From: an uncultured Candidatus Saccharibacteria bacterium
Lineage (GTDB): Bacteria > Patescibacteriota > Minisyncoccia > Phycocordibacterales > UBA9973
NCBI GenBank assembly: GCA_964565825.1
Contig: CAZMGK010000001.1
Location: forward strand, 2,052-66,051
Direction: 5' to 3'
DNA: 64,000 nucleotides
In this document: in pieces, positions 3,001 to 63,989 of the stretch
Layout of the letters: every line of letters starts with the position of its first letter
Numbering within the stretch: position 1 is the stretch's first letter
Notes under the pieces: generated by a model
Told to the model about the DNA's origin: nothing
The model's database searches: none
What the model saw: the letters and a program-made list of their open reading frames with translations, nothing else
Program-made: the position numbers and the translations under genes

Positions 3001-6000
3001 GCCTGTGGTTGGGAGGACTGCTGGAGATGAACAATCAGGAGTCAGGACGCCGTCGATTGAGTCAGTGACTACTATGTATGTGTCAGCTTGGATACCTTGA
3101 CCGGTGGCATTGTCTGCAGTCGTGAAGGTAATAGTTTGAGGACTGGTAGTGGTTAGAAATGTTGCAGTGGTAAATGATCCTGTTGGGACTGTGTTGTCGA
3201 TGATAATAGTCAGTGCGCCACTATCTCCTGATTCATTTCCAGCGAGATCTACCTCACGGACCGTGAGGTTGTTGTGTGTCCCTTCAGACAGGGCTGATGT
3301 GGTACAAGACCAGGCACCAGCTCCGTCTGATGTTGTGGTACAGACAAGTGTTCCGTTATCGTAGACTTTGACTGTCTGTGTGGCACCGGCTCCCGTTCCA
3401 GAGAGTGTTGGTGTGGTGTCAGAAGTGAGATCATCAGTTGATGAGTATCCAGTGTCAGAACCTGCATCGAGGTTTGGGGTACCCGATGGAGCAGAAGGTG
3501 CTGTAGTATCGATGGTGACAGAAAGTGCACCGGATGCCACAGATACATTCCCGGCGACATCTGTTTGTTTCGCAGTGATACTGTAGGCAGCATCTGGAGT
3601 AAGTGCAGTTACGGTCAAGGTGACAGTACTTGCTGCACAGACACCGGTCACACCAGTAGCTACTCCACCGACGAAGAGTTCGACAGTAGATCCGGTGACA
3701 CACGAGAGATCAAAGGTTGGTGTACTATCATTGGTCACATCGTCGTTGGTGAATGTTCCATTGTCGGTTCCAGAGGTCATATCCGGTGCACCTGGAGCAG
3801 CGTCTGCTGTCGTGTCGATGATGATTGCTTTGTTGGCACCAAGAGATCCTGCAGCTCCAGGAGTTGGGAGAGTCAGGTCGGAGTCGATTGTTCCACCGTT
3901 TAAGGCCAGGGAACCTGTACCAGTGTAGTCGAGGTCGGAACTTGTCTCACCTGAGGCGACAGTGTATGTGAAGGTAAGTACTGTGGTACCAGTACCTGAA
4001 GTATAGTTGACGACTGCATCTGTTCCTCCTGTTTCCAGAGTCAGTTGTGGAGTACCGGTGACAGCGACTGGATTAGAGAAAGTAATTTGTATTGAAATGA
4101 CATCGCCTGCATTGTATGAGCCGTCGCCGGTTGATGAGGAGACGTCGGTGACGGTTGTATAGAGGAACCACCCAATAGCGGTACTACTCACGTCAATTGA
4201 GTTTGCTGGCAGAAGAGGAAGTGTGATACCAGAAGAACTATCAAGAGCAGTGTTGTCGGCGATAGAGAGATAATCTCCAGTGAAGGTTGATGCTCCAGTA
4301 AAGGTGATCGTCCGGACTGTCGGAGTATCAGCTGAGGTGATAGCAATGAGGTCATCGGCATCGAGACCATCAAGAACCAGTGAGTTAGCAATAGTGATAT
4401 TACCATTGTCAAAAACAAGTTGACTATTGGTACCATTGTTCGTTGATTCAACCTTAGAGAGTGTGTAGAAAGGAATGGTTGCTGTAGCATCGATGGTGAT
4501 TGCATTAGAGGTAATGGAGACCGTACCGTTGTTGTGTGTAAATGTACCTGCATTAGCAAATGTTGAACCAGAGACAGTGAGTGTCCCAGAGGTTGAAGTC
4601 ATTGCGCCTGAGGCACCAATTGAAAGTGATGGCGTAGACATACTCTGAGCCAATCCAGTGAATGCTCCATCGGTGACGGTCAGTGTATTTGCAACAACGA
4701 GACCACCTCCTAGTTGGAAGGTATCACTGTTACTAGCACTTGCATCATTGATGATGAGGTTGTAGTAGTCGGTGGCACCAAAGTCTTTGATGGTGTGAGT
4801 GGTGGCAGATCCGATTCCGTTACCGTAGTATTCCCAGGTTCCAGAGTTGACGTCGTTGGTGAGAGTGAGGGTGTTACTTCCTTGGAGGCGGACGGTACCG
4901 TCATTACTAAGTGTACCAGAGATAGTAGCATTAAAGCTTGAGAGATCAAGAGTTGAACCAGCATCTATGTCTACAATCGTACCGGTAATATTGAAGTCAT
5001 TGGTCACTACGGTCACCGTTGAATTATTTGTAATCGTAGGGCGGACAGTTCTTGCAACGGAACCAAAGTTCATGTCTTGGGCATCACCTCCGTTAAATGT
5101 TACGGTAAGTTCTGCAGTAAAAGTCATCGTTCCATCAATGATCGCATCTCCCCCAAAACTTGGAGAAAAATTCCCAAATGCTATCGTTCCTCCACTATTT
5201 ACTTGAAGATCTCCTGCATACGTCGATACTGCTCCAGGTGTGAAGGTAGCTCCAGTCATGACAATGAGTTCTTTTGTATCGTTGATGACCGTTGCACCAC
5301 CGGCATCTGGGTAAAGTGTGGTAAGGTCAGCATCTGCATTATTAGCTGTATTGAGTGTCGCAATAGTATGTGCACCACTTTCGAGGATCACTCTATCTTG
5401 GTAAATATCTGTAGTAATGTAGTTCGAAGAACCATTATGTCTAATGAGTGTTGCTCCATCTTCTGTTTCTCCGTCTATGTAGACAGTGACCACAGCAGAA
5501 GCAGTAGGGTTCACATATGACAGAGAGTATGCACCGGTACCACCTGAAGTGGTAGTACATGAGCTTGAGACTCCGTCAACGAGGAGACAGATGGATTTAC
5601 CGTTGGCGATTGGGGTGACTCCTTCGTCGGTGTAGACGCTTCCTGAGATGGTGGAGGCAGCAGCGTCGTAGATGGTGATGCGATGGTTACCAGATTGCGC
5701 AACAAAAAGACGACTGTTTGTAGAATCATACGCGAGATTTTTTGGAGTACTCATACGTGATTGGTTTGTAAGAGCACTAGTATTAGTGAAATTACTTTGC
5801 CCAAGGACATTGATAGCATTTTCTCCATCGGTGATAGTAGCCACATCGTACACAGTGACACGGTGGTTACCAGATTGGGCAACAAAAAGACGATTACCTG
5901 TTGAGTCATAGGCAAGACCTTGTGGACTGTTCATCCCAGCTTGAGTATCAGCCGAAGCAGAGTTTGTAAAATTAGTTTGACCAAGCACAAATGTTGCATT

Positions 6001-8055
6001 TTCTCCGTTAGTAATACCGGTGACATCATAGACTGTGACGCGATGATTGCCGTACTGCGAAACAAAGAGTCTGTTGCCTGTTGCGTCATAAGTAAGACCC
6101 TCTGGACCATTCATCCCAGATTGAGTGTTTCCGGCTCCAGTAGAAAAAAAACTTCCCTGACCAAGTACGAATGTTGCATTTTCTCCATCTGTAATAGCAG
6201 CAACGTCATATACTGTGACACGATGACTACCTGTTTGTCCGACAAAAAGACGATTACCTGTTGAGTCATAGGCAAGACCTGTTGGAGAATTCATTCCGCC
6301 TTGAGTATTAGCAGAGGCGGATGTCGTAAAGAGTGCTTGCCCAAGCACAAATGTTGCATTTTCTCCATCGGTGATAGTAGCCACATCGTACACAGTGACA
6401 CGGTGGTTACCAGATTGGGCAACAAAAAGACGATTACCTGTTGAGTCATAGGCAAGACCTTGTGGACTGTTCATCCCAGCTTGAGTATTTGCCGCTGTAT
6501 TAGACACAAAGTCAGTTTGCCCAAGAACATTATCAGGAACTCTATCAATGAGATTATCGCTCGCATCTAAGTTATACACAAATACTCGATGGTTAGCACT
6601 ATCTGAAACAAACAATCTATGATTAACACTATCTACTTCTTCGTCAACAGGAGTAGAAAAACCAAGTCTGTTCGCAGAATCATGTGACCCACTCTTTGTG
6701 TATGTTGGCACTGGCGCAGATAGATTTGTCCCATCGTACTGACCAAGTGCATCTACTGCATTTTCTCCGTCGGTGATAGTAGTCACATCATAGACAGTGA
6801 GACGACTATTACCATTACCTACTACAAAAAGACGACTATTACTGCTATCATAAGTTAGACCATATGGAGCATTCATCCCTGCTTGAGTGTTTGCCGCAGC
6901 AGTATTGGTGAAGTTACTTTGTCCAAGCACGAATGTTGCATTTTCTCCGTTAGTAATACCGGTGACATCATAGACTGTGACGCGATGATTGCCGTACTGC
7001 GAAACAAAGAGTCTGTTGCCTGTTGCGTCATAAGTAAGACCCTCTGGACCATTCATCCCAGATTGAGTGTTTCCGGCTCCAGTAGAAAAAAAACTTCCCT
7101 GACCAAGTACGAATGTTGCATTTTCTCCATCTGTAATAGCAGCAACGTCATATACTGTGACACGATGACTACCTGTTTGTCCGACAAAAAGACGATTACC
7201 TGTTGAGTCATAGGCAAGACCTGTTGGAGAATTCATTCCGCCTTGAGTATTAGCAGAGGCGGATGTCGTAAAGAGTGCTTGGCCGAGTACATTAATTGCT
7301 GGCTCTCCATCGGTAATTGCCGTGACATCATAGACGATGACGCGATTATTCAAAAAATCGGATACAAAGAGTCTATTATTTATAGAGTCATGCATAATAC
7401 CTCGTGGTGCGCTCATTCCTGATTGAGTGGTAGCAGATGCTGATGTCGTAAAGAGTGCTTGACCAAGGACGTTGATAGCCGGCTCTCCATCAGTGATAGC
7501 AGCGACATCGTAGACCGTGATACGATTGAGGTTTGCAACAAAAAGTCTATTACCTGTTGCGTCGTAAGCGAGACCATATGGAGCACTCATCCCTGCTTGA
7601 GTAACGGAACCACCATTGCTTATAAAGTCTGTTTGACCGAGCACGTTATCAGGAACTCTATCGATCAGGTTATTACTTCCATCTAAGTTATAGACGAGAA
7701 CACGGTTATTATTAACATCTGAAACAAACAATCGATGATTGACTGTATCCATAACTACTCCATACACCTGGTTGAATCCCAGTCTGTTCGGAGAGTCGTT
7801 TGACCCACTTTTTATTATATACCTTGGCACCGGCGCAGATAGATTTGTCCCATCGTACTGCCCCAACAGATCTATCGCATTCGCTCCATTGGAAATAGTT
7901 GCAAATGCAGGTGTTGGTAAAGCAAATGTAATGATGGTAAGTACAAGAATAAGATACGTTTTGTATGATTTCGTATGTGAAAAAATATTCTTTGTAAAAG
8001 ATAAAAAACTATCGACCAGTGTATTACCTTGTGTGTGTTTTGTGTATATAAACAT
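1..8055 (-). CDS. Giant secreted surface protein, partial (C-terminus lies beyond the window start). It has a Sec signal peptide, about 12 NHL-type beta-propeller repeats, then a long run of Ig-like domains (TDxAGNxS motif) and beta-helix-like repeat domains. More than 2680 aa lie in the window.
   Basis: My own reverse-complement translation from the ATG at 8053-8055 (preceded by an in-frame TAA) gives MFIYTKHTQGNTLVDSFLSFTKNIFSHTKSYKTYLILVLTIITFALPTPAFA, then repeated ...GNRLFV.Q.GNHRVTVYDV..ITDGE... (NHL) units. Translation near 3541-3660 gives VTALTPDAAYSITAKQTDVAGNVS in the same frame (low codon coordinate = 1 mod 3) as the start. None of the listed minus-strand ORFs occupies that frame, and all plus-strand ORFs in 1-8000 are short. 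The ORF track omits it because it runs off position 1. Confidence 0.8.
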   Translation of the reverse strand, partial: MFIYTKHTQGNTLVDSFLSFTKNIFSHTKSYKTYLILVLTIITFALPTPAFATISNGANAIDLLGQYDGTNLSAPVPRYIIKSGSNDSPNRLGFNQVYGVVMDTVNHRLFVSDVNNNRVLVYNLDGSNNLIDRVPDNVLGQTDFISNGGSVTQAGMSAPYGLAYDATGNRLFVANLNRITVYDVAAITDGEPAINVLGQALFTTSASATTQSGMSAPRGIMHDSINNRLFVSDFLNNRVIVYDVTAITDGEPAINVLGQALFTTSASANTQGGMNSPTGLAYDSTGNRLFVGQTGSHRVTVYDVAAITDGENATFVLGQGSFFSTGAGNTQSGMNGPEGLTYDATGNRLFVSQYGNHRVTVYDVTGITNGENATFVLGQSNFTNTAAANTQAGMNAPYGLTYDSSNSRLFVVGNGNSRLTVYDVTTITDGENAVDALGQYDGTNLSAPVPTYTKSGSHDSANRLGFSTPVDEEVDSVNHRLFVSDSANHRVFVYNLDASDNLIDRVPDNVLGQTDFVSNTAANTQAGMNSPQGLAYDSTGNRLFVAQSGNHRVTVYDVATITDGENATFVLGQALFTTSASANTQGGMNSPTGLAYDSTGNRLFVGQTGSHRVTVYDVAAITDGENATFVLGQGSFFSTGAGNTQSGMNGPEGLTYDATGNRLFVSQYGNHRVTVYDVTGITNGENATFVLGQTNFTNSASADTQAGMNSPQGLAYDSTGNRLFVAQSGNHRVTVYDVATITDGENAINVLGQSNFTNTSALTNQSRMSTPKNLAYDSTNSRLFVAQSGNHRITIYDAAASTISGSVYTDEGVTPIANGKSICLLVDGVSSSCTTTSGGTGAYSLSYVNPTASAVVTVYIDGETEDGATLIRHNGSSNYITTDIYQDRVILESGAHTIATLNTANNADADLTTLYPDAGGATVINDTKELIVMTGATFTPGAVSTYAGDLQVNSGGTIAFGNFSPSFGGDAIIDGTMTFTAELTVTFNGGDAQDMNFGSVARTVRPTITNNSTVTVVTNDFNITGTIVDIDAGSTLDLSSFNATISGTLSNDGTVRLQGSNTLTLTNDVNSGTWEYYGNGIGSATTHTIKDFGATDYYNLIINDASASNSDTFQLGGGLVVANTLTVTDGAFTGLAQSMSTPSLSIGASGAMTSTSGTLTVSGSTFANAGTFTHNNGTVSITSNAITIDATATIPFYTLSKVESTNNGTNSQLVFDNGNITIANSLVLDGLDADDLIAITSADTPTVRTITFTGASTFTGDYLSIADNTALDSSSGITLPLLPANSIDVSSTAIGWFLYTTVTDVSSSTGDGSYNAGDVISIQITFSNPVAVTGTPQLTLETGGTDAVVNYTSGTGTTVLTFTYTVASGETSSDLDYTGTGSLALNGGTIDSDLTLPTPGAAGSLGANKAIIIDTTADAAPGAPDMTSGTDNGTFTNDDVTNDSTPTFDLSCVTGSTVELFVGGVATGVTGVCAASTVTLTVTALTPDAAYSITAKQTDVAGNVSVASGALSVTIDTTAPSAPSGTPNLDAGSDTGYSSTDDLTSDTTPTLSGTGAGATQTVKVYDNGTLVCTTTSDGAGAWSCTTSALSEGTHNNLTVREVDLAGNESGDSGALTIIIDNTVPTGSFTTATFLTTTSPQTITFTTADNATGQGIQADTYIVVTDSIDGVLTPDCSSPAVLPTTGNTTITCTVDITTANNAEETHVISVTTTDKVGKQVTFNSPNYIIDRLAPTITVYTIDPLTSTPLDFTDPTITFLATDGIAIDHYELNVNGGGFATQTSPYAMTGASTSALNTVILRAYDTAGNIREQTAKFYPIITITAPTVISNTTISDTTINVLMGAPGYIDSVTAVYNGGGSSAITCVPAVGTNPTTTDCTLDDGILTPGGTLTVNGSGDPDGGGPGGSIPGAEATQTYIIETVVPVITPTTPTIFSTASITNATFTITDANGIDSVTFGGTSTHSFTCYDPFPTVATLPTASVSIFCSGTVSATGTLTVDVDDRAGNSATQYSGNFYIDSTDPTLGVPTPTTGTYNSPDPLVAVFTVTDSNSGLVSGDIVITGSNINTSPCVASGTALTPTGNTQFTCTVTFNNSSSGSFEYTATDQSGNSDSSATYTYTFDTTSPTVTSVTSSTANGEYTTGAVISIQIVFSEVVNVTGSPLLTLETGVTDRDATYSSGTGTNTLTFNYTVVAADASGDLDYFATNSLALNGGTIRDVATNNATLTLAAPGAAGSLGANKAIIIDTTADAAPGTPDLDVASDTGNTTDNETNDDTPTFTISCVTGSTVELWVDGSASGYTDVCAGSSSTITITTALTPDGTYTITAKQTDPAGNVSPLSGFVVIDIDTTVDAAPSTPDLDAGSDTADSTGVSTTDNITTDTTPDFTISCVAGSTVDLRNGAITLDSGVCGGGGTITLTATALTPDGAYTLTARQTDVAGNVSATSAGLSVTIDTTAPGSAPGVPDLTNASDTGTTNTDDITEDTTPSFTVSCLGTNLVVLKEGVTLYATGYCSAGTVTLTASPALADGVHVFLAHQEDNAGNASADGTTLSVTIDTTLPGTPVTAPDLDTASDTNITTDNITMDTTPTLSGSCTTGELITLYDGATNVGTFTCAGALYSITSSALADGAHTLTITTTDVAGNESLASPSISVTVDTTAPGAPGVPNLDAGSDSGSSSTDDITSDTT

Positions 8056-9995: not shown

Positions 9996-11444
9996 TTAAT
10001 CAAAATAATGTTTAAGCCTTGCAATTTTTTCATTTGCACGAAGTTTTTCATGCACCTTTGCCTCAATCTGACGAATACGCTCACGTGTGACATTGAATTC
10101 AACACCAACCTCTTCGAGAGTATGCTGTACACCATCAACGAGTCCGTATCTCATTTCTAAAATCTTTCTTTCTTTTTCTGAGAGCTCTTGTAATGCTTCA
10201 TTGATCTGATCTTTCAACATGCGATGAGAACTTTCTTGATCGGGACGAAGGATTTTGTCATCTGCAATAAATTCTCCACGAGTAGACTTTTCGTCGTCGT
10301 CACCAATTGGCTGTTCAAGAGAGAGTGTATCTTGATTGATATTTTCAATTATATGAATCTTCTCAACCTCAACACCCATTTCTGTTGCAATTTCTTCTGG
10401 TAATGGATCACGTCCCAAATCTTGAGACAGGCGTCTGTACACTTGCTTATATTTTGAAATAGTTTCCACCATGTGTACTGGAATACGAATGGTCCGAGAC
10501 TGGTCAGCAAGAGCGCGAGTTATTGATTGACGAATCCACCATGTAGCGTAGGTACTAAATTTATACCCCTTAGTCCAATCAAATTTCTCAACGGCTTTAA
10601 AGAGTCCGATGTTCCCTTCTTGTATTAAATCAAGAAGTGTCAGATCAGCACTTCGTCCAACATATTTTTTTGCAATAGAAACAACGAGACGGAGGTTCGC
10701 GCGAGCCAAGAGTGTTCGAGCCTCTGTATCTCCAGCCTCGATCCGTTTTGCCAAATCACGTTCTTCGCTTGCATGAATAAGTGCATACTGTCCAATTTCT
10801 TTTAGATACATTTGAATAGAATCATATGACGAGGCGTCTTTACCAAGTTTGAAATCTTTCTTCTTTTCCTCTGGGTCCATATCAAGCAAATTTCCACCTT
10901 CCAAGATATCAATCCCGGCAAGCTGTAATTTACTATATAATTCTTCCAAAAAGACTAGATTATTTTCAATATTTGGAAATGACTTGAGTATCTCATCGTA
11001 GGTAATAAAATGACGTTTCTTACCTTTTTCAACAAGTGCATCCATGATGTCTACTTGGTCTTCTATTTTCTTGCTGTGTTTTGTGTTTAAAACAATTTTT
11101 TTCTCAGGAGCTAGATTTTTCTTGGCTGGTATTTTTTTAGTAGGTTTTTTAGCAACCACAGAACTAGCTTTTTTCGCCACACCTGTAACTCGAGATTTTT
11201 TGACAGGAGTCGGTTTCTTTTTTAGAGGGGTCGTTTTCATAGCTGCTTTTTTTACCACAGCCGAAGCCTTGTTCGAGGTTTTGTATTGAGATTTTTTGAC
11301 AGGAGTCGGTTTCTTTTTTAGAGGGGTCGTTTTCATAACTGCTTTTTTTGCAACAGCGGAAGCGACTCTTTTAATCACAGCCTTTGGTTGGGACTTTTTG
11401 ACAGGAGTCGGTTTCTTTTTTGTTTGTGTAATATTTTTTTTCAT
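9996..11444 (-). CDS. rpoD: RNA polymerase sigma-70 factor RpoD, with a lysine-rich tandemly repeated N-terminal extension.
   Basis: Sigma70 region 2 ([40 protein letters not shown]) and region 4 are present. The N-terminus repeats ...[17 protein letters not shown]...; the DNA shows about 96-bp repeats at roughly 11196/11291/11395. Confidence 0.92.
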
Positions 11445-32545: not shown

Positions 32546-32990
32546 TTCATGATGTCACACGATAAGCCGAATTCTGTCCCCCGCACTCACTATACAAATT
32601 TAGAAACTAATATAGTGAGTGCGGGAGGATACACATTTATCTGGGATAGATATTACTATCTACCTCAAGCGATTCTTCCTCGATATTTCTATCTCAGACG
32701 CGATCTTGCACACAAGTACGGATTTAGCCGTTTCATTCTCTCCTTACAAAGAGATTATTCCTTACAATTACTTGTCGGGAACCCTAGCCTTTCGGCATTG
32801 GCGTCACTGTTCGCACCGCGCACTTACATACGATGGGCGTTACCCACTACTCTTGAGGGAGGCCTTGCCTCCCTCAGTGTGTTCGGACTTTCCTCCCCCA
32901 CACCTATATTTTTATTGCTGATGAATCAGCGTTTTATAGAAACAATAAAAACATGGGTGTGGGGGCGTGTATCTGTGCAACACAACCACT
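32545..32990 (-). ncRNA. rnpB: RNase P RNA (bacterial), with an unusually long AU-rich P3 closed by the CCCCCACACC/GGTGTGGGGG stem.
   Basis: Minus-strand RNA carries the P4 5' strand GGGAGGAAAGUCCGAAC (reverse complement of 32881-32897), the P8-like UGGGUAACGCCCA, and the P4 3' strand GACAGAAUUCGGCUUAUCG (reverse complement of 32559-32577), about 400 nt apart in the canonical order. P2 ACACG/CGUGU. The overlapping plus-strand ORFs 32549..33028 and 32619..32921 are spurious. Confidence 0.75.
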
Positions 32991-40582: not shown

Positions 40583-41413
40583 TTAAAAATCAAAATATAA
40601 TACCGATTTTACAGTCGCCGTGTATTCTGGAGTACATCCTTGGAAACACACGCTAGACTCAACTTCAACTGCATACCGATACGGCACATCCGTCACATCC
40701 GTGAATGATAGAAATCGAAAATATTCTGATGGTGCTGTTGTTCCTGAATAGAGCGAAGCGTCAAACGCAATCAAACCGTTCTCATTATACAACATTGGGT
40801 CCGTAGCATACGCAGCATATCCGATGGTTCCAGAACCAGAAAAAGGGTTGAAATAATAATCGCACTGATTCCCTGATCCGCACGCTGTATCAATAAGAGC
40901 CAGAAAATCACTTGCACTATCACCGTCGGCGACTGCTTCTTTTTGAACAAATTTTACAAACTCAACTCCCTCTTCGGCGAGATACTGGGCTGTTAACTTT
41001 CTTTTAGTCAGATGAATATCTTGCATAGAGCTCGTACTGACCTGTGACAAGGCGGTAAACGCAATCAAGAAAATAAACAATGCAACGAGTGTTTCGATGA
41101 GGGTAAACCCCGACACCAATTTCAGGTGATTGTTCGCACAAGTAGGTGTATATTTATTCTGAGAAAAATTAAGAAAACCAAAAACGTGTTTCTTACTAAT
41201 TGGTGTGGGGGTAAACCCCGACACCAATTTCAGGTGATTGTTCGCACAAGTAGGTGTATATTTATTCTGAGAAAAATTAAGAAAACCAAAAACGTGTTTC
41301 TTACTAATTGGTGTGGGGGTAAACCCGCCTACAAATCTCACTTTATTTTTAGTTTCCACGTGCATGTTACTTTTTTGTATATTTTTTTGTAGAAAACGAA
41401 TAAATGTATTCAT
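40583..41413 (-). CDS. Type IV pilin whose 5' end carries tandem 108-bp (36-aa) modules, each recreating the prepilin cleavage site (…LKLVSG|FTPTPISKKHVFGFLNFSQNKYTPTCANNH…) before the authentic VSG|FTLIETLVALF.
   Basis: Prepilin motif SGFTLIETLVALFIFLIAF. The upstream in-frame repeats come from the DNA repeats at 41096-41330. The true translation start is uncertain. Confidence 0.75.
   Translation of the reverse strand: MNTFIRFLQKNIQKSNMHVETKNKVRFVGGFTPTPISKKHVFGFLNFSQNKYTPTCANNHLKLVSGFTPTPISKKHVFGFLNFSQNKYTPTCANNHLKLVSGFTLIETLVALFIFLIAFTALSQVSTSSMQDIHLTKRKLTAQYLAEEGVEFVKFVQKEAVADGDSASDFLALIDTACGSGNQCDYYFNPFSGSGTIGYAAYATDPMLYNENGLIAFDASLYSGTTAPSEYFRFLSFTDVTDVPYRYAVEVESSVCFQGCTPEYTATVKSVLYFDF
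41096..41330 (-). repeat. 2.1 tandem copies of a 108-bp unit, each beginning with the palindrome GGTGTGGGGG-taaa-CCCCGACACC.
   Basis: GGGTAAACCCCGACACCAAT occurs at 41101 and 41209, with a partial copy at 41317. The units are identical. Confidence 0.85.
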
Positions 41414-41414
41414 A

Positions 41415-42125
41415 TTAATCTTTTGGGGTTCTTTGCATTACTGCTGTTTGAATACTAAAAGGTATTGTGGTGTCCTCAAATGCAATAGTCCCAGCAAGGC
41501 GTATGGTGACCAAGGGTGGTTCTCGATCGGCTGACTCTGCATAGATAACAGAAAATCCTGAATTTGCTGGAATAATTGTTATGGGGCTTGGAGTTAAGCG
41601 ATTGTAATTAGCAACACTTAGAGTTGTAATATCAGGTCCAAGTGTTTTAAAGACTGACCATACACTTGTATCTGGATCTTCTGCAATCACATAGCCAACT
41701 TGGTCATCCGTGACCCCATCTTGACCCGCAACCCCCTCGAATGCCAGAGAAAGACTTGCCTGCACATCTGTCCCCGTAGTACCATCAACACAAGACTTTG
41801 GCTCTTCGATGATTGAGTTTGAATAATCACCACCTACATCACATCTAATATGTCTTCCGACACGGATATTCCTAACCATATCTTCCATAATAGCACTGAG
41901 TGTATCAAACTGTTCTTTTTGAAATTGAGTTATTTTGTATGCTCGATGCATCATCAACAGAGATGATATACCCAAAGATACAATGATCAAAAAAATAGAA
42001 CTTGAAACAAGGAGTTCTATTAAGGTAAACCCTTTTTGAGATTGTCTTTTTTTGTAATAAGAATATGGTGTCATCATGTGAAGTATGTATATAGTATAGG
42101 GTACTTTTTCTCTTTTTACTAACAA
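41415..42125 (-). CDS. Type IV pilin/pseudopilin
   Basis: KG|FTLIELLVSSSIFLIIV prepilin motif. Confidence 0.75.
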   Translation of the reverse strand: MLVKREKVPYTIYILHMMTPYSYYKKRQSQKGFTLIELLVSSSIFLIIVSLGISSLLMMHRAYKITQFQKEQFDTLSAIMEDMVRNIRVGRHIRCDVGGDYSNSIIEEPKSCVDGTTGTDVQASLSLAFEGVAGQDGVTDDQVGYVIAEDPDTSVWSVFKTLGPDITTLSVANYNRLTPSPITIIPANSGFSVIYAESADREPPLVTIRLAGTIAFEDTTIPFSIQTAVMQRTPKD

Positions 42126-42131
42126 AAGAGC

Positions 42132-42866
42132 CTACTGAGATTTCTTGATACTTAAAATACCGACCGGATTGATATTGATAGTATTTTTACCGGGTGAACC
42201 TGGTAAAATAAAAACAAGATCTACGTTACTGGTGACAGGTAAAATAGTATTTGGATTAATAGCATTTACAGACCATTCTGGATCATAGTCTTGGCGCATG
42301 CGTGCGTCCGGGTATGGACGCTTGAAAACAGTAGAGAAAGTTTCTAGATCAGCAGTGTTACATGAATCGTTCGATGGCTCATATCCTCCTTCACATATTT
42401 TATGGAGACGAATATCCTCAAAAAACATTTCTTGCATACATTCGTAGTAGTATGAATTACCACAATCAAGAACTATCCCCCCGGGGTTAATAGCAATCAG
42501 GTCATCATTAAAATTATCATAAAAAATACTCATTTTCTCAGGTGTATTTACATCGAAATATATTCCGTAGGCGGGTTTCCATGCTGGAAGTGGGTATTCT
42601 TTTAACCCTGGATCAATATCGGGTAATTTTCCCGCCAACGCATTGTGCTGTTGTTCTTTGATAAGAAGTGCGACCTCCTGGACTGCAACAGTAAAATCAG
42701 TATTGTTTTTAAATGCGTCAAAGTTAAAAAGCACAATACCAGCCATCATACTAAAAATAGATATCACCACAATCATTTCCATTACCGTAAAACCAGCTTG
42801 CTGTGTAGGTGCAATCACAACATGTTCTCGTGACTTTGACCTATTTTTTTTAAAAAATGCAAACAT
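42132..42866 (-). CDS. Type IV pilin-like protein (minor pilin/pseudopilin)
   Basis: AG|FTVMEMIVVISIF N-terminal methylation-type segment. Confidence 0.65.
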   Translation of the reverse strand: MFAFFKKNRSKSREHVVIAPTQQAGFTVMEMIVVISIFSMMAGIVLFNFDAFKNNTDFTVAVQEVALLIKEQQHNALAGKLPDIDPGLKEYPLPAWKPAYGIYFDVNTPEKMSIFYDNFNDDLIAINPGGIVLDCGNSYYYECMQEMFFEDIRLHKICEGGYEPSNDSCNTADLETFSTVFKRPYPDARMRQDYDPEWSVNAINPNTILPVTSNVDLVFILPGSPGKNTININPVGILSIKKSQ

Positions 42867-42869
42867 ATA

Positions 42870-43679
42870 TTAAAAATGAGTTGTTAGTATTTGAGTAATA
42901 GTGATGGAGAACAGAAATACAAAAAATATCGCGGTACACATGAACGGTCCAAATGGAACATGGCTTTTAAGCGTCGTCTTTTTGCGCAACAGTAACATAC
43001 CAATACCCCAAAGACCACCGATCCAAAAAGACACGAGAACTGCTGCGAAACCACCCGTGATACCAAGCAACCACCCCATTCCAAGAGCAAGCTTTACATC
43101 ACCAAAACCCATCGCTTTTCCACCGGTGACCCACCACAAGAAAAAGAAAGGCAGTGCAATAAGTGGTCCAGCAAGTACTGACCACAAAGATGGGAGGTGG
43201 ATAGCATAGCTCATACCCGTAAATATGAAAAGAGAAAGAAAAGCCAAAATATTAAACAGCCAAACAAATGTGTCTGGAATAATATTGTGATGATAATCGT
43301 ACACAGAAATAACAATCAAGATACAAAAAATGTAGGTAAAAAATATAAGCGGGAAAAAAGACATCCAACTAAAAGAGTACATAAGGGTGGTATCTGGGAG
43401 AAATTTAATAAAGAGAGAAACAAATACAAAACCAGTGATTGCTTCAACAAGTGGATACTGCCACGAAATTTTTGAAGCACAGCCTTTGCACTTACCCCTC
43501 TGACTCAAGAAGCTCGCAATCGGTACGAGCTCGTGCCAAGAAAGTGTCCGACGGCAGGTAAAACAAAAAGAACGTCCGCCAAGACCACGCCCTGTATTGA
43601 ATCTATAAATGACCACATTCAAAAATGAACCGATGACTGTCCCGAGTAAAAAAACAAAAATTCCGTAGATTTCAAACAT
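42870..43679 (-). CDS. pilD: Prepilin peptidase (A24 family, PilD/TadV-like)
   Basis: Polytopic membrane protein with an N-terminal CxxC...CxxC zinc motif (CFTCRRTLS...CKGCASKIS) and conserved A24 blocks. Confidence 0.85.
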   Translation of the reverse strand: MFEIYGIFVFLLGTVIGSFLNVVIYRFNTGRGLGGRSFCFTCRRTLSWHELVPIASFLSQRGKCKGCASKISWQYPLVEAITGFVFVSLFIKFLPDTTLMYSFSWMSFFPLIFFTYIFCILIVISVYDYHHNIIPDTFVWLFNILAFLSLFIFTGMSYAIHLPSLWSVLAGPLIALPFFFLWWVTGGKAMGFGDVKLALGMGWLLGITGGFAAVLVSFWIGGLWGIGMLLLRKKTTLKSHVPFGPFMCTAIFFVFLFSITITQILTTHF

Positions 43680-43751
43680 GCTTTTAGTATACCTAGAAAT
43701 AGGTAAAGGGTAAAGGATTTGACTGTGTATACAAACACAGACACACTCTTT

Positions 43752-44432
43752 TTAAGGATTACATTCTGTTTCTTGTTGTTGCAGATGATACGTTGTGCTT
43801 TGCCCAGAAAAACCAGTCGAATCGATACAAAAAGCAATATTAAAGTCTGTTTTTAATGGAGAAGAAACACCCCAGAGCGTTCCCGTAGGATGATTGTCAT
43901 GGCACACGGATAAAAGTCGATACCCAGCTGTTTCATAATCTGTTGAATACCATGGAAATGGATTATTGGAAAGTCTCGCTGCTTCTGCCAAAAAAGCTTC
44001 AACTTCAACACTATCGCACATATAGCTGTAGCTATTATTTTCTTGGTAATAAATATATGATTGTTTTTTAATTCCATCAAGAGCGGCTTTGATGGCTGCG
44101 TCACGTGCCCTATCTCGAGCATTCGTTAAACGAGGAATAATAATACCTGCAAGAATACCAATAATTGCAATCACAATGAGGAGCTCGATGAGGGTAAACC
44201 CCGACACCAATCGCAACAGACGCTGACGCCCTTTTTTGGTATGATGAGTCATCAGACGAGTAAGAAAACCGAATGGGTTATTTTTTAGGATTGGTGTGGG
44301 GGTAAACCCCGACATCAATCGCAACAGACGCTGACGCCCTTTTTTGGTATGATGAGTCATCAGACGAGTAAGAAAACCGAATGGGTTATTTTTTAGGATT
44401 GGTGTGGGGGTAAACCCCGACACCAATTTCAT
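43752..44432 (-). CDS. Type IV pilin with tandem 36-aa N-terminal modules (MKLVSG|FTPTPILKNNPFGFLTRLMTHHTKKGRQRLLRL x2) before the authentic VSG|FTLIELLIVIAIIG. The ORF track extends it to 44639; the ATG at 44432 (MKLVSG) is the more likely start.
   Basis: Prepilin motif SGFTLIELLIVIAIIGILAG. The modules are homologous to those of 40583..41413 and have the same 108-bp period. Confidence 0.75.
   Translation of the reverse strand: MKLVSGFTPTPILKNNPFGFLTRLMTHHTKKGRQRLLRLMSGFTPTPILKNNPFGFLTRLMTHHTKKGRQRLLRLVSGFTLIELLIVIAIIGILAGIIIPRLTNARDRARDAAIKAALDGIKKQSYIYYQENNSYSYMCDSVEVEAFLAEAARLSNNPFPWYSTDYETAGYRLLSVCHDNHPTGTLWGVSSPLKTDFNIAFCIDSTGFSGQSTTYHLQQQETECNP
44187..44432 (-). repeat. Three copies, at a 108-bp period, of GGGTAAACCCCGACACCAAT... 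carrying the GGTGTGGGGG-taaa-CCCCGACACC palindrome.
   Basis: Copies begin at 44192, 44300 and 44408. Units are near-identical (one has ACATC for ACACC). Confidence 0.85.
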
Positions 44433-44576
44433 ATACTTTTTTTTAAGGAGAGCACTTTTTTGTTTCAAAAAATGTTTTTTTGTACTAAAAACTTTTTGTT
44501 TTTTCTTTTTTAATCTTTTAACAATACTTCTATCTTTGTTAAAAATTTTGGTGTTTGAATTTGTATGTGGGGTTTT

Positions 44577-44611
44577 TGTTGGGGGAGGCCTACGGCCTCC
44601 GCCAACAAACA
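44577..44611. promoter_or_regulatory. Imperfect 16-nt-arm palindrome TTTGTTGGGGGAGGCC-tac-GGCCTCCGCCAACAAA in the divergent pilin/RNase II-R region; candidate operator.
   Basis: Single C/G mismatch in the G/C run, the same kind of mismatch as in the GGTGTGGGGG/CCCCGACACC palindrome. Confidence 0.35.
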
Positions 44612-44722
44612 CCCCCAAAAACACTACCGAAAAACACATACCAAGAGCACCCTCTTTATGCTACACTATAGTCGTGATTAAACCTCAAAAAACAGAAGCC
44701 GAAATACTCGAACGTCGAGAAT

Positions 44723-63913: not shown

Positions 63914-63989
63914 ACCCCGACACCCATATTTTTACAATTTGTTTAAAGTAGTAGGATATTTGTAATAAAAACATATAGGTGTGGGGGTA
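63914..63989. repeat. GC-clamp hairpin element CCCCGACACC-CATATTTTTA...AATAAAAACAT-GGTGTGGGGG upstream of murD; paralogous to the rnpB P3 hairpin and to the pilin-associated palindrome.
   Basis: Shared termini CACC(C/T)ATATTTTTA and AATAAAAACAT..GGTGTGGGGG with 32895-32965. Confidence 0.5.

Follow-up and report, generated by a model that had tools for sequence, protein, structure and literature searches.

The tandem 108-bp modules that precede the mature coding sequence of two type IV pilin genes are most likely copies of a mobile inverted-repeat element together with its target-site duplication, which is the main point missed by the original prediction. The 64-kb stretch of DNA analysed (the window) and its comparison with related genomes make it very probable that a passenger element of the MITE type sits at the prepilin cleavage site and is translated as part of the leader, with a small GIY-YIG nuclease as its candidate partner.

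The repeats lie in a pilin operon on the minus strand, and both ORFs that carry them contain the N_methyl motif (PF07963), in agreement with their proposed identity as pilins. Between them are a peptidase of family A24, which is the prepilin peptidase that had been placed there, and two further pilin-like genes:

40583..41413, minus strand: pilin-like gene 1, ORF with PF07963 N_methyl at residues 101-122
41415..42125, minus strand: pilin-like gene, site unoccupied; AAA GGG TTT ACC TTA ATA GAA = KG|FTLIE, with TTTA at 42026-42029
42132..42866, minus strand: pilin-like gene, site unoccupied; GCT GGT TTT ACG = AG|FTVME, with TTTA at 42788-42791
42870..43679, minus strand: prepilin peptidase PilD, peptidase family A24 (PF06750, 4.8e-28; PF01478, 1.1e-09)
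43752..44432, minus strand: pilin gene 2, major-pilin type, ORF with PF07963

Gene 1 starts at ATG 41413, 1 nt past the stop codon of the preceding pilin gene, and reads as a native leader (MNTF...KVRFVGG), two in-frame units and the mature protein FTLIETLV..., from the F at 41107-41105. For gene 2, two starts had been proposed, of which the ATG at 44432 (MKLVSG|F) is the likely one and 44639 is not retained. After its leader, MKLVSG, come two in-frame units and the mature protein from the F at 44198-44196 (FTLIELLIVIAIIG...); this pilin has 684 homologues at E<=1e-10.

Tandem Repeats Finder reports an array of period 108 in each gene (41101-41326, 2.1 copies, 100% identity, within the gene 1 ORF 40583-41413; 44192-44427, 2.2 copies, 98% identity, within the ORF 43752-44639), which bears out the predicted tandem repetition of the G|FT junction. 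In both genes the array consists of two complete units and one additional junction, without a third unit, as opposed to the two to three copies first counted. Each 108-bp unit is composed of a 104-bp inverted-repeat element and a 4-bp target duplication, TTTA, and the units and one related sequence are arranged as follows:

41216..41319, minus strand: pilin-1 unit A, 104-bp core; arms CCCCCACACCAATT / AATTGGTGTCGGGG; TTTA at 41320-41323 and 41212-41215
41108..41211, minus strand: pilin-1 unit B, 100% identical to unit A; the downstream TTTA (41104-41107) is the mature-pilin Phe codon plus the first Thr base
44307..44410, minus strand: pilin-2 unit A, 104-bp core; a G>A SNP in the right arm (GATGTCGGGG) gives ..RLMSG
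44199..44302, minus strand: pilin-2 unit B, 104-bp core; the mature pilin begins with TTTA 44195-44198
44415..44432, minus strand: pilin-2 start codon and solo right-arm-like sequence ATGAAATTGGTGTCGGGG, encoding MKLVSG

The outer arms of the element are CCCCCACACC and GGTGT(G/C)GGGG, and the inner extension of the arms is particular to each subfamily. At the prepilin cleavage site, the duplicated TTTA spans the codon for Phe(+1) and the initial base of that for Thr(+2). Translated in the frame of the pilin, the arms give (F)TPTP on the left and (L)V(S/W)G on the right, and the junctions read ...LVSG|FTPTP..., the last one being ...LVSG|FTLIE..., just as in the original translation. The 24-nt motif GGTGTCGGGGTTTACCCCCACACC occurs three times (0.00 expected by chance), and the 18-nt junction 10 times (0.04 expected). 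The stretch common to both genes is 27 nt long (ATTGGTGTCGGGGTTTACCCTCATCGA), not 26 nt. The palindrome described at the start of each module exists, but its stem contains a C.C mismatch, which makes it imperfect, and what had been taken for mimicry of the pilin 5' end is simply the right arm of one unit, TTTA and the left arm of the next. In RNA folds, the pilin units each have a closing stem of 13-15 pairs (visible, for example, in pilin-1 unit A), with shuffle z-scores of -2.0 to -3.0 for two pilin units. The solo sequence at 44415..44432 has the same 3' end (..ATGAAATTGGTGTCGGGGTTTACC) as the single unit of a related locus, L173, and may be the remnant of an older unit.

As flanking 4-mers, 65 pilin-site inserts have the pair TTTA/TTTA, 12 have TTCA/TTCA and five have a mixed pair, while independence with locus-specific Phe codon usage predicts 28.9 mixed pairs. 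Perfect flank pairs other than TTTA are found elsewhere (TATA/TATA in the window, CAAG/CAAG, CTTG/CTTG and CATG/CATG). In about half of the forced-left-end elements the flanking 4-mers are non-identical, and three copies within ORFs (L012, L016 and L019) combine a left TTTA with right flanks of TATA, TGTA and TCTA, respectively; hence the duplication is not always intact, or TTTA may belong in part to the element. The rnpB copy has no TTTA flanks. In favour of mobility, identical or near-identical units occupy separate loci of one genome (100% identity for L017 and L027, 97% for L004 and L027), and tandem arrays built of differing units occur at L004, L006, L017, L027 and L010.

The comparison of homologous loci in relatives, which had been recommended, yielded both filled and empty sites. 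The homologous pilin of a related genome (P0002/L173) has one unit, which is 86.5% identical to pilin-1 unit B, and P0105 and P0017 have other units; the majority of homologues have none and read MKKG|FTLIE, and two pilins of this same operon are also empty. The element may prefer the pilin site as its target; enrichment there was measured mostly in samples picked for pilin-like flanks, the few unbiased observations being two of the four window sites and L036, a bycatch.

The family extends well beyond the pilin genes. There are four family sites in the window, namely the two pilin sites, the P3 stem of RNase P RNA and a position upstream of a murD-like gene:

32547-32984, minus strand: RNase P RNA (RF00010, 76.3 bits, E = 2.5e-23), with a 53-nt insertion in P3
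32895..32965, minus strand: family hairpin of 71 bp, forming the whole P3 stem-loop of RNase P RNA (fold z = -7.4)
63915..63987, minus strand: intergenic family copy of 73 bp upstream of the murD-like ORF; flanks TATA/TATA, right arm GGTGTCGGGG

The rnpB and murD-upstream copies have extended arms in common with each other and with L024, L048 and L011. The 18-mer GGGGTTTACCCCCACACC matches at 51 genome loci, 33 of which are from named Patescibacteria lineages, often with several per genome, and the family is widespread in Patescibacteria, which are ultra-small bacteria. All true members have the same layout of arm, variable interior and arm, with cores of 28 to about 210 nt. In-frame copies are also present in genes for TatD, a PLP-dependent ThrC-like enzyme and a POR subunit, as well as in one more ORF, and in the first three the element is read in a different frame from the pilin copies. 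We found no description of this Patescibacteria hairpin family.

Several features of the pilin-adjacent inserts bear on whether they are translated. Among 89 non-redundant inserts, comprising about 20 length classes, the length is a multiple of three in 74 (p = 5e-22), and 77 are free of stops in the pilin frame, as compared with 22 and 44 in the control frames. For 62 of 69 inserts an in-frame ATG lies upstream, and the resulting leaders (median of about 8-9 aa) are net positive in 60 of 62 and have Gly (50) or Ala (11) at the -1 codon. The encoded peptide evolves neutrally, in that 27 synonymous and 81 nonsynonymous codon changes were counted (22% synonymous being the neutral expectation), with 0 and 10, respectively, between the window and L173 units; insert lengths among the pilins range from 10 to 47 codons, and the interiors are unrelated. 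Because they are in-frame and stop-free and yet neutral as peptides, the units most likely add a translated, passive extension to the leader, and the suggestion of a translated long leader thereby gains comparative support, with ordinary starts and leaders ahead of the inserts. The exceptions are 15 out-of-frame inserts and 12 with stops in the pilin frame (each of the 89). Such genes have to initiate within the unit, and L073, L077, L095, L106 and L130 have ATG codons inside the element with basic residues after them. A start inside a unit is possible in principle in this genome as well, at TTG, GTG or ATG in the right arms.

If the units instead formed a structured 5' UTR that affects stability or translation, the pilins would start in the last right arm and have leaders of 3-5 aa. 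Start-type codons do occur in the right arms (TTG GTG TCG GGG, or TTG ATG in pilin-2 unit A), every unit folds with its closing stem, and the out-of-frame inserts elsewhere indicate that pilins apparently tolerate a start inside the unit. In an untranslated leader, however, frame and stops would drift freely, which is not the pattern among the 89 inserts, and both window arrays are open and in-frame. The canonical ATG, basic leader and Gly lie upstream of the insert in the 62 of 69 cases noted above, the gene 1 ATG is coupled to the preceding gene's stop, no promoter-like signal above shuffled controls was found near the arrays, and the arrays have no Rfam match; we consider an untranslated leader unlikely. 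An assembly artefact, in which short reads from a single insertion were assembled into a tandem duplication or a wrong copy number, is distinctly improbable. In favour of such an artefact, the DNA comes from a metagenome assembly, the units, at 98-100% identity, exceed the usual k-mers in length, and the sole independent contig breaks inside both arrays. This independent Logan unitig (sample SRR12762287) is identical to the window and ends where 31-mers lose uniqueness, at the pilin-2 inter-unit SNP and immediately beyond the left junction of the pilin-1 array, which is the branching expected of tandem copies. The SNP separates the two pilin-2 units, and the unitig end requires both variants; at pilin-1, the end just past the unique left junction means that the unit start is entered from two contexts. 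Identical-unit tandem arrays are also present in other assemblies (L020 x3, L034 x3 and L053 x2-3), and the main conclusion would be unchanged even with a single copy, although the exact tandem copy number in this short-read assembly is uncertain.

The two functional roles raised by the original prediction are both unlikely. A purpose-built pro-peptide, cut by PilD at every G|F to release 36-aa peptides with their own role, would fit the in-frame, stop-free and very probably translated units, the Gly(-1) and Phe(+1) at every junction (Gly at -1 is the main determinant of PilD cleavage, so that the upstream junctions may be cut as well) and the PilD gene within the operon. It is nevertheless very improbable: the peptides evolve neutrally and range in length from 10 to 47 codons, with unrelated interiors, conservation is confined to the arm nucleotides, which are palindromic DNA, the same element is present outside coding sequences, within RNase P RNA and, in a different frame, in the TatD, ThrC-like and POR genes, most homologous pilins have no unit, and the upstream junctions are followed by TPTP... 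instead of a membrane helix. An untranslated scaffold for phase variation or recombination, whose copy-number changes or array-array exchange would switch or diversify pilin expression, is hardly credible. Identical tandem units between short direct repeats readily expand and contract, relatives differ in copy number (one unit in L173 versus two here), and the read graph branches at the arrays. But gain or loss of a unit of exactly 36 codons leaves the frame unchanged, and the frame bias indicates that translation matters. Furthermore, the arrays lie 3.1 kb apart in direct orientation, and recombination between them would remove pilD together with two pilin genes; neither an invertase nor a recombinase was found among the genes of the operon, and the element is also scattered through unrelated contexts.

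The preferred reading, a translated passenger element, can be outlined as follows. A 104-bp non-coding inverted-repeat element would have inserted at the TTTA of the prepilin cleavage site, where the duplicated TTTA rebuilds G|FT ahead of an untouched mature pilin. Each insert would later have been duplicated in tandem in this genome, the likely routes being slippage or unequal exchange involving the GGGTTTACC repeats on either side, or a second insertion beside an existing end. Conservation patterns suggest that translation proceeds from the native start upstream of the insert through the open in-frame units, yielding prepilins with leaders of 78 aa and 102 aa, and that PilD probably cuts at the last G|F, adjoining the membrane helix, to give a normal pilin. 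The insert would then be a tolerated passenger and not a designed pro-peptide.

The candidate mobilising enzyme comes from same-arm elements, about 277-340 bp long and in 8 of 13 cases within 286-290 bp, the sole gene of which encodes an 84-87-aa GIY-YIG nuclease (PF01541, with a weak TIGR01453 match of 23-28 bits against a cut-off of 56). In 1.06 Mb, five of nine GIY-YIG genes lie within 42 nt of an arm, and in a protein-first sample the arms enclose the gene in all eight cases. Matched arm extensions surround the gene in L013 (20/21), L095 (19/20) and L099, and at the P0143 loci a 16/16 inverted repeat overlaps its stop codon. Units of the same arm subfamily are found on contigs with GIY-YIG elements. 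No remnant of the gene was found in unit interiors, so that the arms alone link the units to these elements, and the 64-kb window contains no GIY-YIG gene. No GIY-YIG nuclease is known to catalyse transposition, and mobilisation by this one is suggested by its association with the arms.

Type IV leaders are roughly 5-10 aa (type IVa) or 15-30 aa (type IVb). The pilins described here resemble other class III signal peptide proteins, including the long-leader type IVb prepilins, in the basic leader ending in Gly, the Phe or hydrophobic residue after the cut, Glu at +5, the N-terminal hydrophobic helix and the dedicated A24 peptidase in the locus. Their leaders differ in owing their additional length to repeated selfish DNA that contains internal cleavage motifs, and not to a conserved leader. 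Among short dispersed repeats, the REPs lie outside genes and carry a conserved GTAG, and their RAYT partners are Y1 HUH enzymes (IS200-like), about 150 aa long. The REP/REPIN and RAYT system likewise pairs a short hairpin family with a single small nuclease-type gene bracketed by hairpins, but here the gene encodes an 84-aa GIY-YIG domain (PF01541) with arms overlapping its stop codon, and the units lie inside coding sequences with a 4-bp duplication. The Rickettsia palindromic elements (Ogata et al. 2000), as listed in a review (PMC3184786), are also short palindromic repeats dispersed across a reduced genome, translated in-frame inside genes and present outside them. Unlike these, the Patescibacteria family is marked by a defined terminal arm of 10 bp and a target duplication of 4 bp, recurs at the prepilin G|FT codon context, where it rebuilds the processing site, and has a protein-coding relative with a GIY-YIG gene; the comparison covers these features and the host lineage, Patescibacteria as opposed to Rickettsia. 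Bacterial MITEs such as Correia, Nezha and BOX (PMC3184786) are similar in their terminal inverted repeats, short target-site duplication, lack of a transposase, many dispersed copies, filled and empty sites, RNA hairpins and occasional ORF fusions. The present units differ in being as small as 26-32 bp, scarcely more than both arms, and in having interiors that are unrelated between subfamilies, and the sole same-arm coding element has a GIY-YIG nuclease instead of a DDE, HUH, serine or tyrosine transposase. Finally, the GIY-YIG homing endonucleases (I-TevI and the phage Seg proteins) also have this catalytic domain in a selfish, horizontally spreading cassette. The protein described here, which is encoded outside any intron or intein and has no appended DNA-binding domain, is distinguished by its length of 84-87 aa and by a gene that is bounded by inverted repeats and has non-coding derivatives.

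The two repeat-bearing genes of the window are a pilin-like gene (gene 1) and a major-pilin-type gene (gene 2), and both ORFs carry the prepilin N-methylation motif PF07963, above the cut-off in each. The original prediction of period-108 arrays that repeat the prepilin cleavage junction G|FT in both genes is borne out by the tandem repeats, by the ORFs and by the junction motifs, which far exceed the chance expectation for the window (3 found, 0.00 expected; 10 found, 0.04 expected). The prepilin peptidase gene (PilD) lies between the two arrays, as had been noticed, together with two more pilin-like genes:

40583-41413, minus strand: gene 1
41101-41326, minus strand: tandem array of gene 1, period 108, 2.1 copies, 100% identity
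42870-43679, minus strand: A24 prepilin peptidase gene (PF06750 and PF01478)
43752-44432, minus strand: gene 2
44192-44427, minus strand: tandem array of gene 2, period 108, 2.2 copies, 98% identity

Tandem copies are thus present in each gene, as two full units rather than the two to three expected. In the sense direction, gene 1 reads MNTF...KVRFVGG|FTPTPISKKHVFGFLNFSQNKYTPTCANNHLKLVSG|(same 36 aa once more)|FTLIETLV..., and gene 2 reads MKLVSG|FTPTPILKNNPFGFLTRLMTHHTKKGRQRLLRLMSG|(repeat of it, ending ...RLVSG)|FTLIELLIVIAIIG.... The final junctions, VSG|FTLIETLVALFIFLIAF and VSG|FTLIELLIVIAIIGILAG, have the form G|F(T/S)(L/I)xE, and a hydrophobic helix comes next. The starts are probably at 41413 and 44432; the alternative start at 44639, offered earlier for gene 2, is not upheld. 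If translated from these positions, the leader would have 102 aa in gene 1 and 78 aa in gene 2, basic in each case but far beyond the usual short leader of a class III signal peptide. A native short leader is still visible 5' of the inserts, and the gene 1 ATG lies one base past the stop of the preceding pilin gene. Two pilin genes of the same operon have unoccupied GG(G/T)-TTTA-C(C/G) sites.

Each unit of the window pilin genes has a 104-bp core, bounded by 14-bp arms (CCCCCACACCAAT(T/C) and (A/G)ATTGGTGTCGGGG, one mismatch). A scan with GGGGTTTACCCCCACACC of one genome per species gave 51 loci, 33 of which are from named Patescibacteria lineages (Saccharibacteria, Paceibacterota, Harrison-, Nealson-, Giovannoni- and Nomurabacteria), with single genomes often contributing several. 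In its surroundings, the motif invariably marks the left end of a short element with inverted repeats, so that the palindrome previously placed at the start of each module really consists of a unit's right arm, TTTA and the following unit's left arm. It is present, as described, although imperfect, and the stretch common to the two genes counts 27 nt and not 26. Members of the family share a layout: a 4-mer stands at either edge, then come the arms, CCCCCACACC on the left and GGTGTGGGGG on the right, each extended inward by a subfamily-specific stretch that is complementary to its counterpart, and the interior between them varies. Core lengths run from 28 to ~210 nt, the smallest units being ~26-32 bp, and in RNA folding the arms of each unit close a stem of 13-15 base pairs. 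When the viral collection was scanned with the bare hairpin, the 52 matches (L174-L225) were all GC-rich phage terminator hairpins without TTTA flanks, in which the stem CCCCCACACC/GGTGTGGGGG takes the form aaaaaagg-stem-loop-stem-cctttttt. These appear unrelated to the family, and because they share its 10-bp stem, the bare stem is not diagnostic. A few members were seen outside Patescibacteria, in MAGs of Sedimentisphaerales (L043, at a pilin site), Omnitrophota (L012), Deltaproteobacteria (L042) and Cloacimonetes (L237, a GIY-YIG element, see below), which suggests either horizontal spread or mis-binned contigs.

There are four family sites in the window, including two copies outside the pilin genes:

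32895-32965, minus strand: 71-bp copy that makes up the entire P3 stem-loop of the RNase P RNA gene (32547-32984)
63915-63987, minus strand: 73-bp copy with TATA/TATA flanks, ~15 nt 5' of the ATG of a murD-like ORF (MKGYADYFEGKKITVLGLG...)

The RNase P RNA gene matches the RF00010 class A model over its full length (E = 2.5e-23, 76 bits vs a gathering score of 100), with a 53-nt insertion in P3 relative to the model; no Rfam model reached its gathering score anywhere in the window, and none matched in or around the arrays at E<=1. The P3 hairpin is without TTTA flanks and reads cacg|CCCCC...GGGGG|AGGAAAGTCC. Its extended arms are common to the copy upstream of the murD-like gene and to elements of other genomes. 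The copy at 63915-63987 may belong to the 5' untranslated region of the murD-like gene. Four copies in non-pilin genes of other genomes are also in frame, leave the ORF intact, and use a reading frame different from that of the pilins (G-VYPHT...GVGV-Y):

L016 515-588, minus strand: copy in a TatD gene (PF01026, 1.1e-72, the match being split in two)
L012 625-677: copy in a PLP-dependent PALP/ThrC-like gene (1.5e-68) of the Omnitrophota MAG
L019 6201-6274: copy in a POR subunit gene
L240 421-524: copy in a 215-aa ORF, with perfect CATG/CATG flanks

With the P3 stem-loop and the in-frame TatD, ThrC-like and POR copies in view, the family can be used to flag places where essential molecules tolerate a structural insertion.

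The geometry of insertion accounts for the repetition of the cleavage site. In the pilin frame the left arm reads TTT-A|CC-CCC-ACA-CC (F-T-P-T-P), and the right arm reads ..G-GTG-T(C/G)G-GGG|TTT-A (V-(S/W)-G|F). Gly at -1 comes from the right arm, and the duplicated TTTA gives Phe(+1) together with the opening base of Thr(+2), so that every insertion at this point regenerates G|FT just before an intact mature pilin. PilD would presumably cut the last junction, the sole one with a membrane helix after it; the upstream junctions may or may not also be cleaved.

The set comprises 89 non-redundant pilin genes preceded by a unit: 80 came from the metagenome scan and the remainder from the genome-scan loci, the single-unit locus L173 and the window. 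The metagenome scan pattern, a right arm directly 5' of TTY-ACN...GA (F-T-x-x-E), is blind to frame. The insert (core plus 4 nt) is a multiple of three in 74 of the 89 (binomial p = 5e-22), spread over ~20 length classes from 29 to 137 nt, and in 66/80 of the metagenome-scan subset (p = 2e-19). The pilin frame is free of stops in 77/89, compared with 22/89 and 44/89 for the two control frames. An in-frame ATG lies 5' of 62 of 69 in-frame units, at a median of ~8-9 codons, and the leader that it begins is net positive in 60/62. The -1 codon of the left junction is Gly in 50 cases (all four Gly codons are used) and Ala in 11. Together, the leaders and the -1 codons indicate that what is now the left junction began as the leader-G|F-T of an ordinary pilin gene, and the element sits between this native leader junction and the mature coding sequence. 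Among diverged copies of one subfamily there are 27 synonymous and 81 nonsynonymous codon changes (neutral expectation, 22% synonymous), and the window unit differs from that of L173 by 0 synonymous and 10 nonsynonymous changes. Judged by these substitutions, the encoded peptide is not conserved, and selection would keep only frame and openness, as expected for a translated part of the leader that is cut off and discarded. A protein search with the leader modules alone gave no matches, which is consistent with non-conserved peptides. The exceptions are 15/89 inserts out of frame and 12/89 with stops in the pilin frame; several of these have an ATG and basic residues inside the unit, pointing to an internal start as an escape route. 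A promoter and terminator scan found nothing above shuffled controls, and there are no tRNA or tmRNA genes in the window.

The units have every testable attribute of a MITE: they are non-coding with terminal inverted repeats, have a 4-bp target duplication, occur as dispersed copies at both filled and empty sites, and share their ends with a coding element. At pilin sites the flanking 4-mers are TTTA/TTTA in 65 cases and TTCA/TTCA in 12 (77 concordant), with 5 mixed. If both copies had followed the Phe codon usage of each locus independently, 28.9 mixed TTYA pairs would be expected instead of 5, which rules out codon bias as the source of the TTCA/TTCA concordance. Perfect pairs of other sequence occur elsewhere (TATA/TATA, CAAG/CAAG, CTTG/CTTG and CATG/CATG), and in many other family copies the duplications are degraded or unequal. 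Units 97-100% identical are found on different contigs of one Saccharibacteria MAG, where neighbouring units differ. Tandem arrays of unlike units (L004, L006, L017, L027 and L010) imply repeated insertion beside an existing end, since duplication cannot make them. A comparison of homologous loci, which had been suggested at the outset, gave the filled and empty sites directly: most homologues of gene 2 read M..KKG|FTLIE with nothing inserted, some have other short units, and homologous major pilins carry 0, 1 or 2 units (2 in the window). The closest relative, protein P0002 on locus L173 of the same sample, has exactly one 104-bp unit behind the normal leader MKKNISQG|F..., and this unit is 86.5% identical to that in gene 1. 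Judged by the names of homologues, the source would be of the Paceibacteria/Parcubacteria type within Patescibacteria.

On this sequence evidence, the arrays are very probably the result of mobile-element insertion followed by local duplication, and as translated sequence they would passively lengthen the prepilin leader. Two other readings had been offered. One of these, a translated multi-site pro-peptide, holds in so far as the frame and the stop-free counts argue for translation of the repeats; it fails as a designed pro-peptide, because the peptide evolves neutrally. The other, that the repeats are an untranslated scaffold for recombination or phase variation, could draw on the unit number that differs among homologues and on the related genome with one unit, but is not supported, since the 36-codon unit keeps frame and the arrays are in frame. 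Contingency loci work through repeat gain or loss that alters the reading frame or the spacing of the promoter, and here 108 bp amount to 36 codons inside an ORF, so that frame is kept at any copy number. A role in phase variation or cassette exchange is unlikely given this unit length and the fact that recombination between the arrays would delete pilD. Several other systems were considered and rejected. The repeats are identical and tandem, without the A-specific differences of a diversity-generating retroelement, and the identity of the "spacers" likewise argues against a CRISPR-like array. Both genes have the same orientation and no recombinase was found, as opposed to a shufflon or invertible segment; occurrences are too sparse, and always inverted pairs, for a DNA uptake sequence; and there is no stop at the take-off site for translational bypass.

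The second step in the preferred reading, tandem doubling, was local, because units are 98-100% identical within an array and the two arrays are only ~67% alike (global alignment), mostly in the arms. Unequal exchange or slippage involving the flanking GGGTTTACC repeats could have produced it, as could a new insertion where an arm meets TTTA. The lone independent contig, a 2.9-kb unitig of sample SRR12762287 and the only result of an exact-protein look-up of PilD for strain variants, is identical to the window and breaks in both arrays, stopping where its 31-mers lose uniqueness (at a SNP between the units of gene 2, and just past the left junction in the array of gene 1). These end points match genuine tandem copies, copy number itself being beyond what short reads can certify. 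Comparable arrays occur at L020, L034 and L053. The last of these (385-3700) is another PilD-linked cluster, in which three consecutive pilins each have 2-3 in-frame, partly degenerate ~43-aa units that read FTHTP/FTHTL...KLVSG, with normal leaders 5' of them.

The coding element that shares its ends with the units contains a GIY-YIG nuclease gene. There are 9 small GIY-YIG genes in the 1.06 Mb examined, 5 of them within 16-42 nt of a family arm. The protein matches the catalytic domain PF01541 (1.4e-18, 67 bits) over positions 1-72 of 78. In three of the hairpin-first loci the gene is enclosed by arms with matching element-specific extensions (20/21 in L013, 19/20 in L095 and about 10/11 in L099). 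A protein-first search gave 780 family members at E<=1e-8; the best 120 are 84 aa long and share 71-96% identity with the query, and they come from many metagenomes, mostly on short contigs. Eight members were chosen by length of contig alone, and 8/8 are enclosed by arms, in addition to the 5 hairpin-first loci. The elements can be summarized as follows:

L226-L243, L008, L013, L021, L095 and L099: arm-bounded GIY-YIG elements, ~277-340 bp, 8/13 within 286-290 bp

The single cargo is an 84-87-aa GIY-YIG gene, ~88% of the element, and no other cargo was found between arms at the loci examined. The clearest examples total ~288 bp and read TTTA|CCCCCACACCAAATTA-aagct-ATG...84 aa...TAATTTGGTGTGGGGG|, with the stop codon inside the right repeat. 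The inverted repeat is perfect (16/16) at the loci of protein P0143 and 15/16 at those of protein P0233. Hairpin units of the same arm subfamily share contigs with GIY-YIG elements, and the genes of L013 and L095 have premature stops. At the P0143 loci (L226-L235), called ORFs abut the element on both sides: a 64-aa ORF enters the left arm and the next ORF begins inside the right arm, with an identical left context and two alternative right contexts among samples, which may reflect a split host gene or a recombination boundary. At L243 734-982 there is a different, 82-aa GIY-YIG gene with ~55-nt direct repeats (gttctgcgcc.aaggcgca...cccacccccggagctt) and no inverted arms, which may be another kind of small nuclease cassette.

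We put forward as a hypothesis, and not as a result, that this nuclease mobilises the family; GIY-YIG enzymes are not known to act as transposases. Tentatively, and with somewhat less than even confidence, the units might be non-autonomous derivatives of the ~290-bp element, which has only an 84-aa GIY-YIG nuclease gene between 16-bp inverted repeats. Element ends would be recognised by this enzyme through their G-run/TTTA/C-run geometry, perhaps when extruded as a cruciform, and it would move itself together with the hairpins, making a 4-bp duplication. The prepilin cleavage codons GGG-TTT-ACC would be a natural mimic of its target, and the element would effectively home to pilin genes across Patescibacteria, surviving there by regenerating the PilD site. 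If so, it would be among the smallest self-contained mobile elements in bacteria, with a class of mobilisation enzyme unlike any among the known insertion-sequence families. No GIY-YIG gene was found in the 64-kb window. Derivation of the units by internal deletion of the GIY-YIG element was rejected, as a six-frame profile search gave 14 weak matches vs 10 in shuffled units and none at E<=0.01; a by-eye resemblance (CIFILRK...) is not real. A search for an autonomous element whose two ends carry these arms 0.5-4 kb from each other gave three candidates, which are neighbouring insert-bearing pilins (L053 and L070) or chance matches.

Translation inside conserved genes and a place in a structured RNA have been reported for Rickettsia palindromic elements and other small repeats (PMC3184786). 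The present units resemble these RPE-type palindromes in behaviour only, being in frame in the TatD, PALP/ThrC-like and POR genes, the L240 ORF and 74/89 pilins. Unlike the known kinds, they recur at one processing-site codon context and rebuild that site, a preference measured for the most part in samples selected for pilin-like flanks; they also extend down to ~26-32 bp, and their partner gene is a bare GIY-YIG domain of no known transposase class. In REP/RAYT systems the hairpins flank a gene for a Y1 HUH (IS200-like) transposase, whereas here the flanked gene is GIY-YIG and an HUH domain was not found. GIY-YIG homing endonucleases have an appended DNA-binding domain and reside in an intron or intein, or are encoded by a free-standing gene beside the cleavage site, in contrast to the 84-87 aa, arm-bounded proteins described here, which score 23-28 bits against TIGR01453 (cut-off 56). 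The literature search turned up no account of CPR MITEs, of pilin leaders with inserts, or of GIY-YIG elements in bacteria that have inverted repeats at their ends; a paper on Saccharibacteria pili makes no mention of unusual leaders.

In Patescibacteria, type IV pili are regarded as central to an episymbiotic way of life. For annotation, the insertions account for the very long leaders with repeated cleavage motifs of many Patescibacteria pilin genes, and such leaders are liable to confuse gene callers, signal-peptide prediction and the classification of pilins. They also bear on how selfish DNA would persist in a genome with almost no spare DNA, namely by occupying a segment that the cell discards, and, as the element end and target duplication rebuild the processing site, they offer a natural experiment on what a prepilin leader needs and what it can do without. 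The arm-enclosed 84-aa GIY-YIG gene points to an undescribed, extremely compact mobile element.

Three other repeats of the window were observed. A separate long imperfect palindrome (GGGGTTTTTGTTGGGGGAGGCC-TACG-GCCTCCGCCAACAAACACCCC; 44560-44620), present once, lies between gene 2 and a divergent RNase R-like gene, possibly as a bidirectional terminator or as a repeat of another type. A tandem repeat at 5789-6529 (period 180/360 bp, ~4 copies, 70-77% identity) is likely to code for a repeated protein domain. The same 21-bp x2 repeat (TTTTTGACAGGAGTCGGTTTC) occurs at 11197-11238 and at 11293-11334, 96 nt apart.
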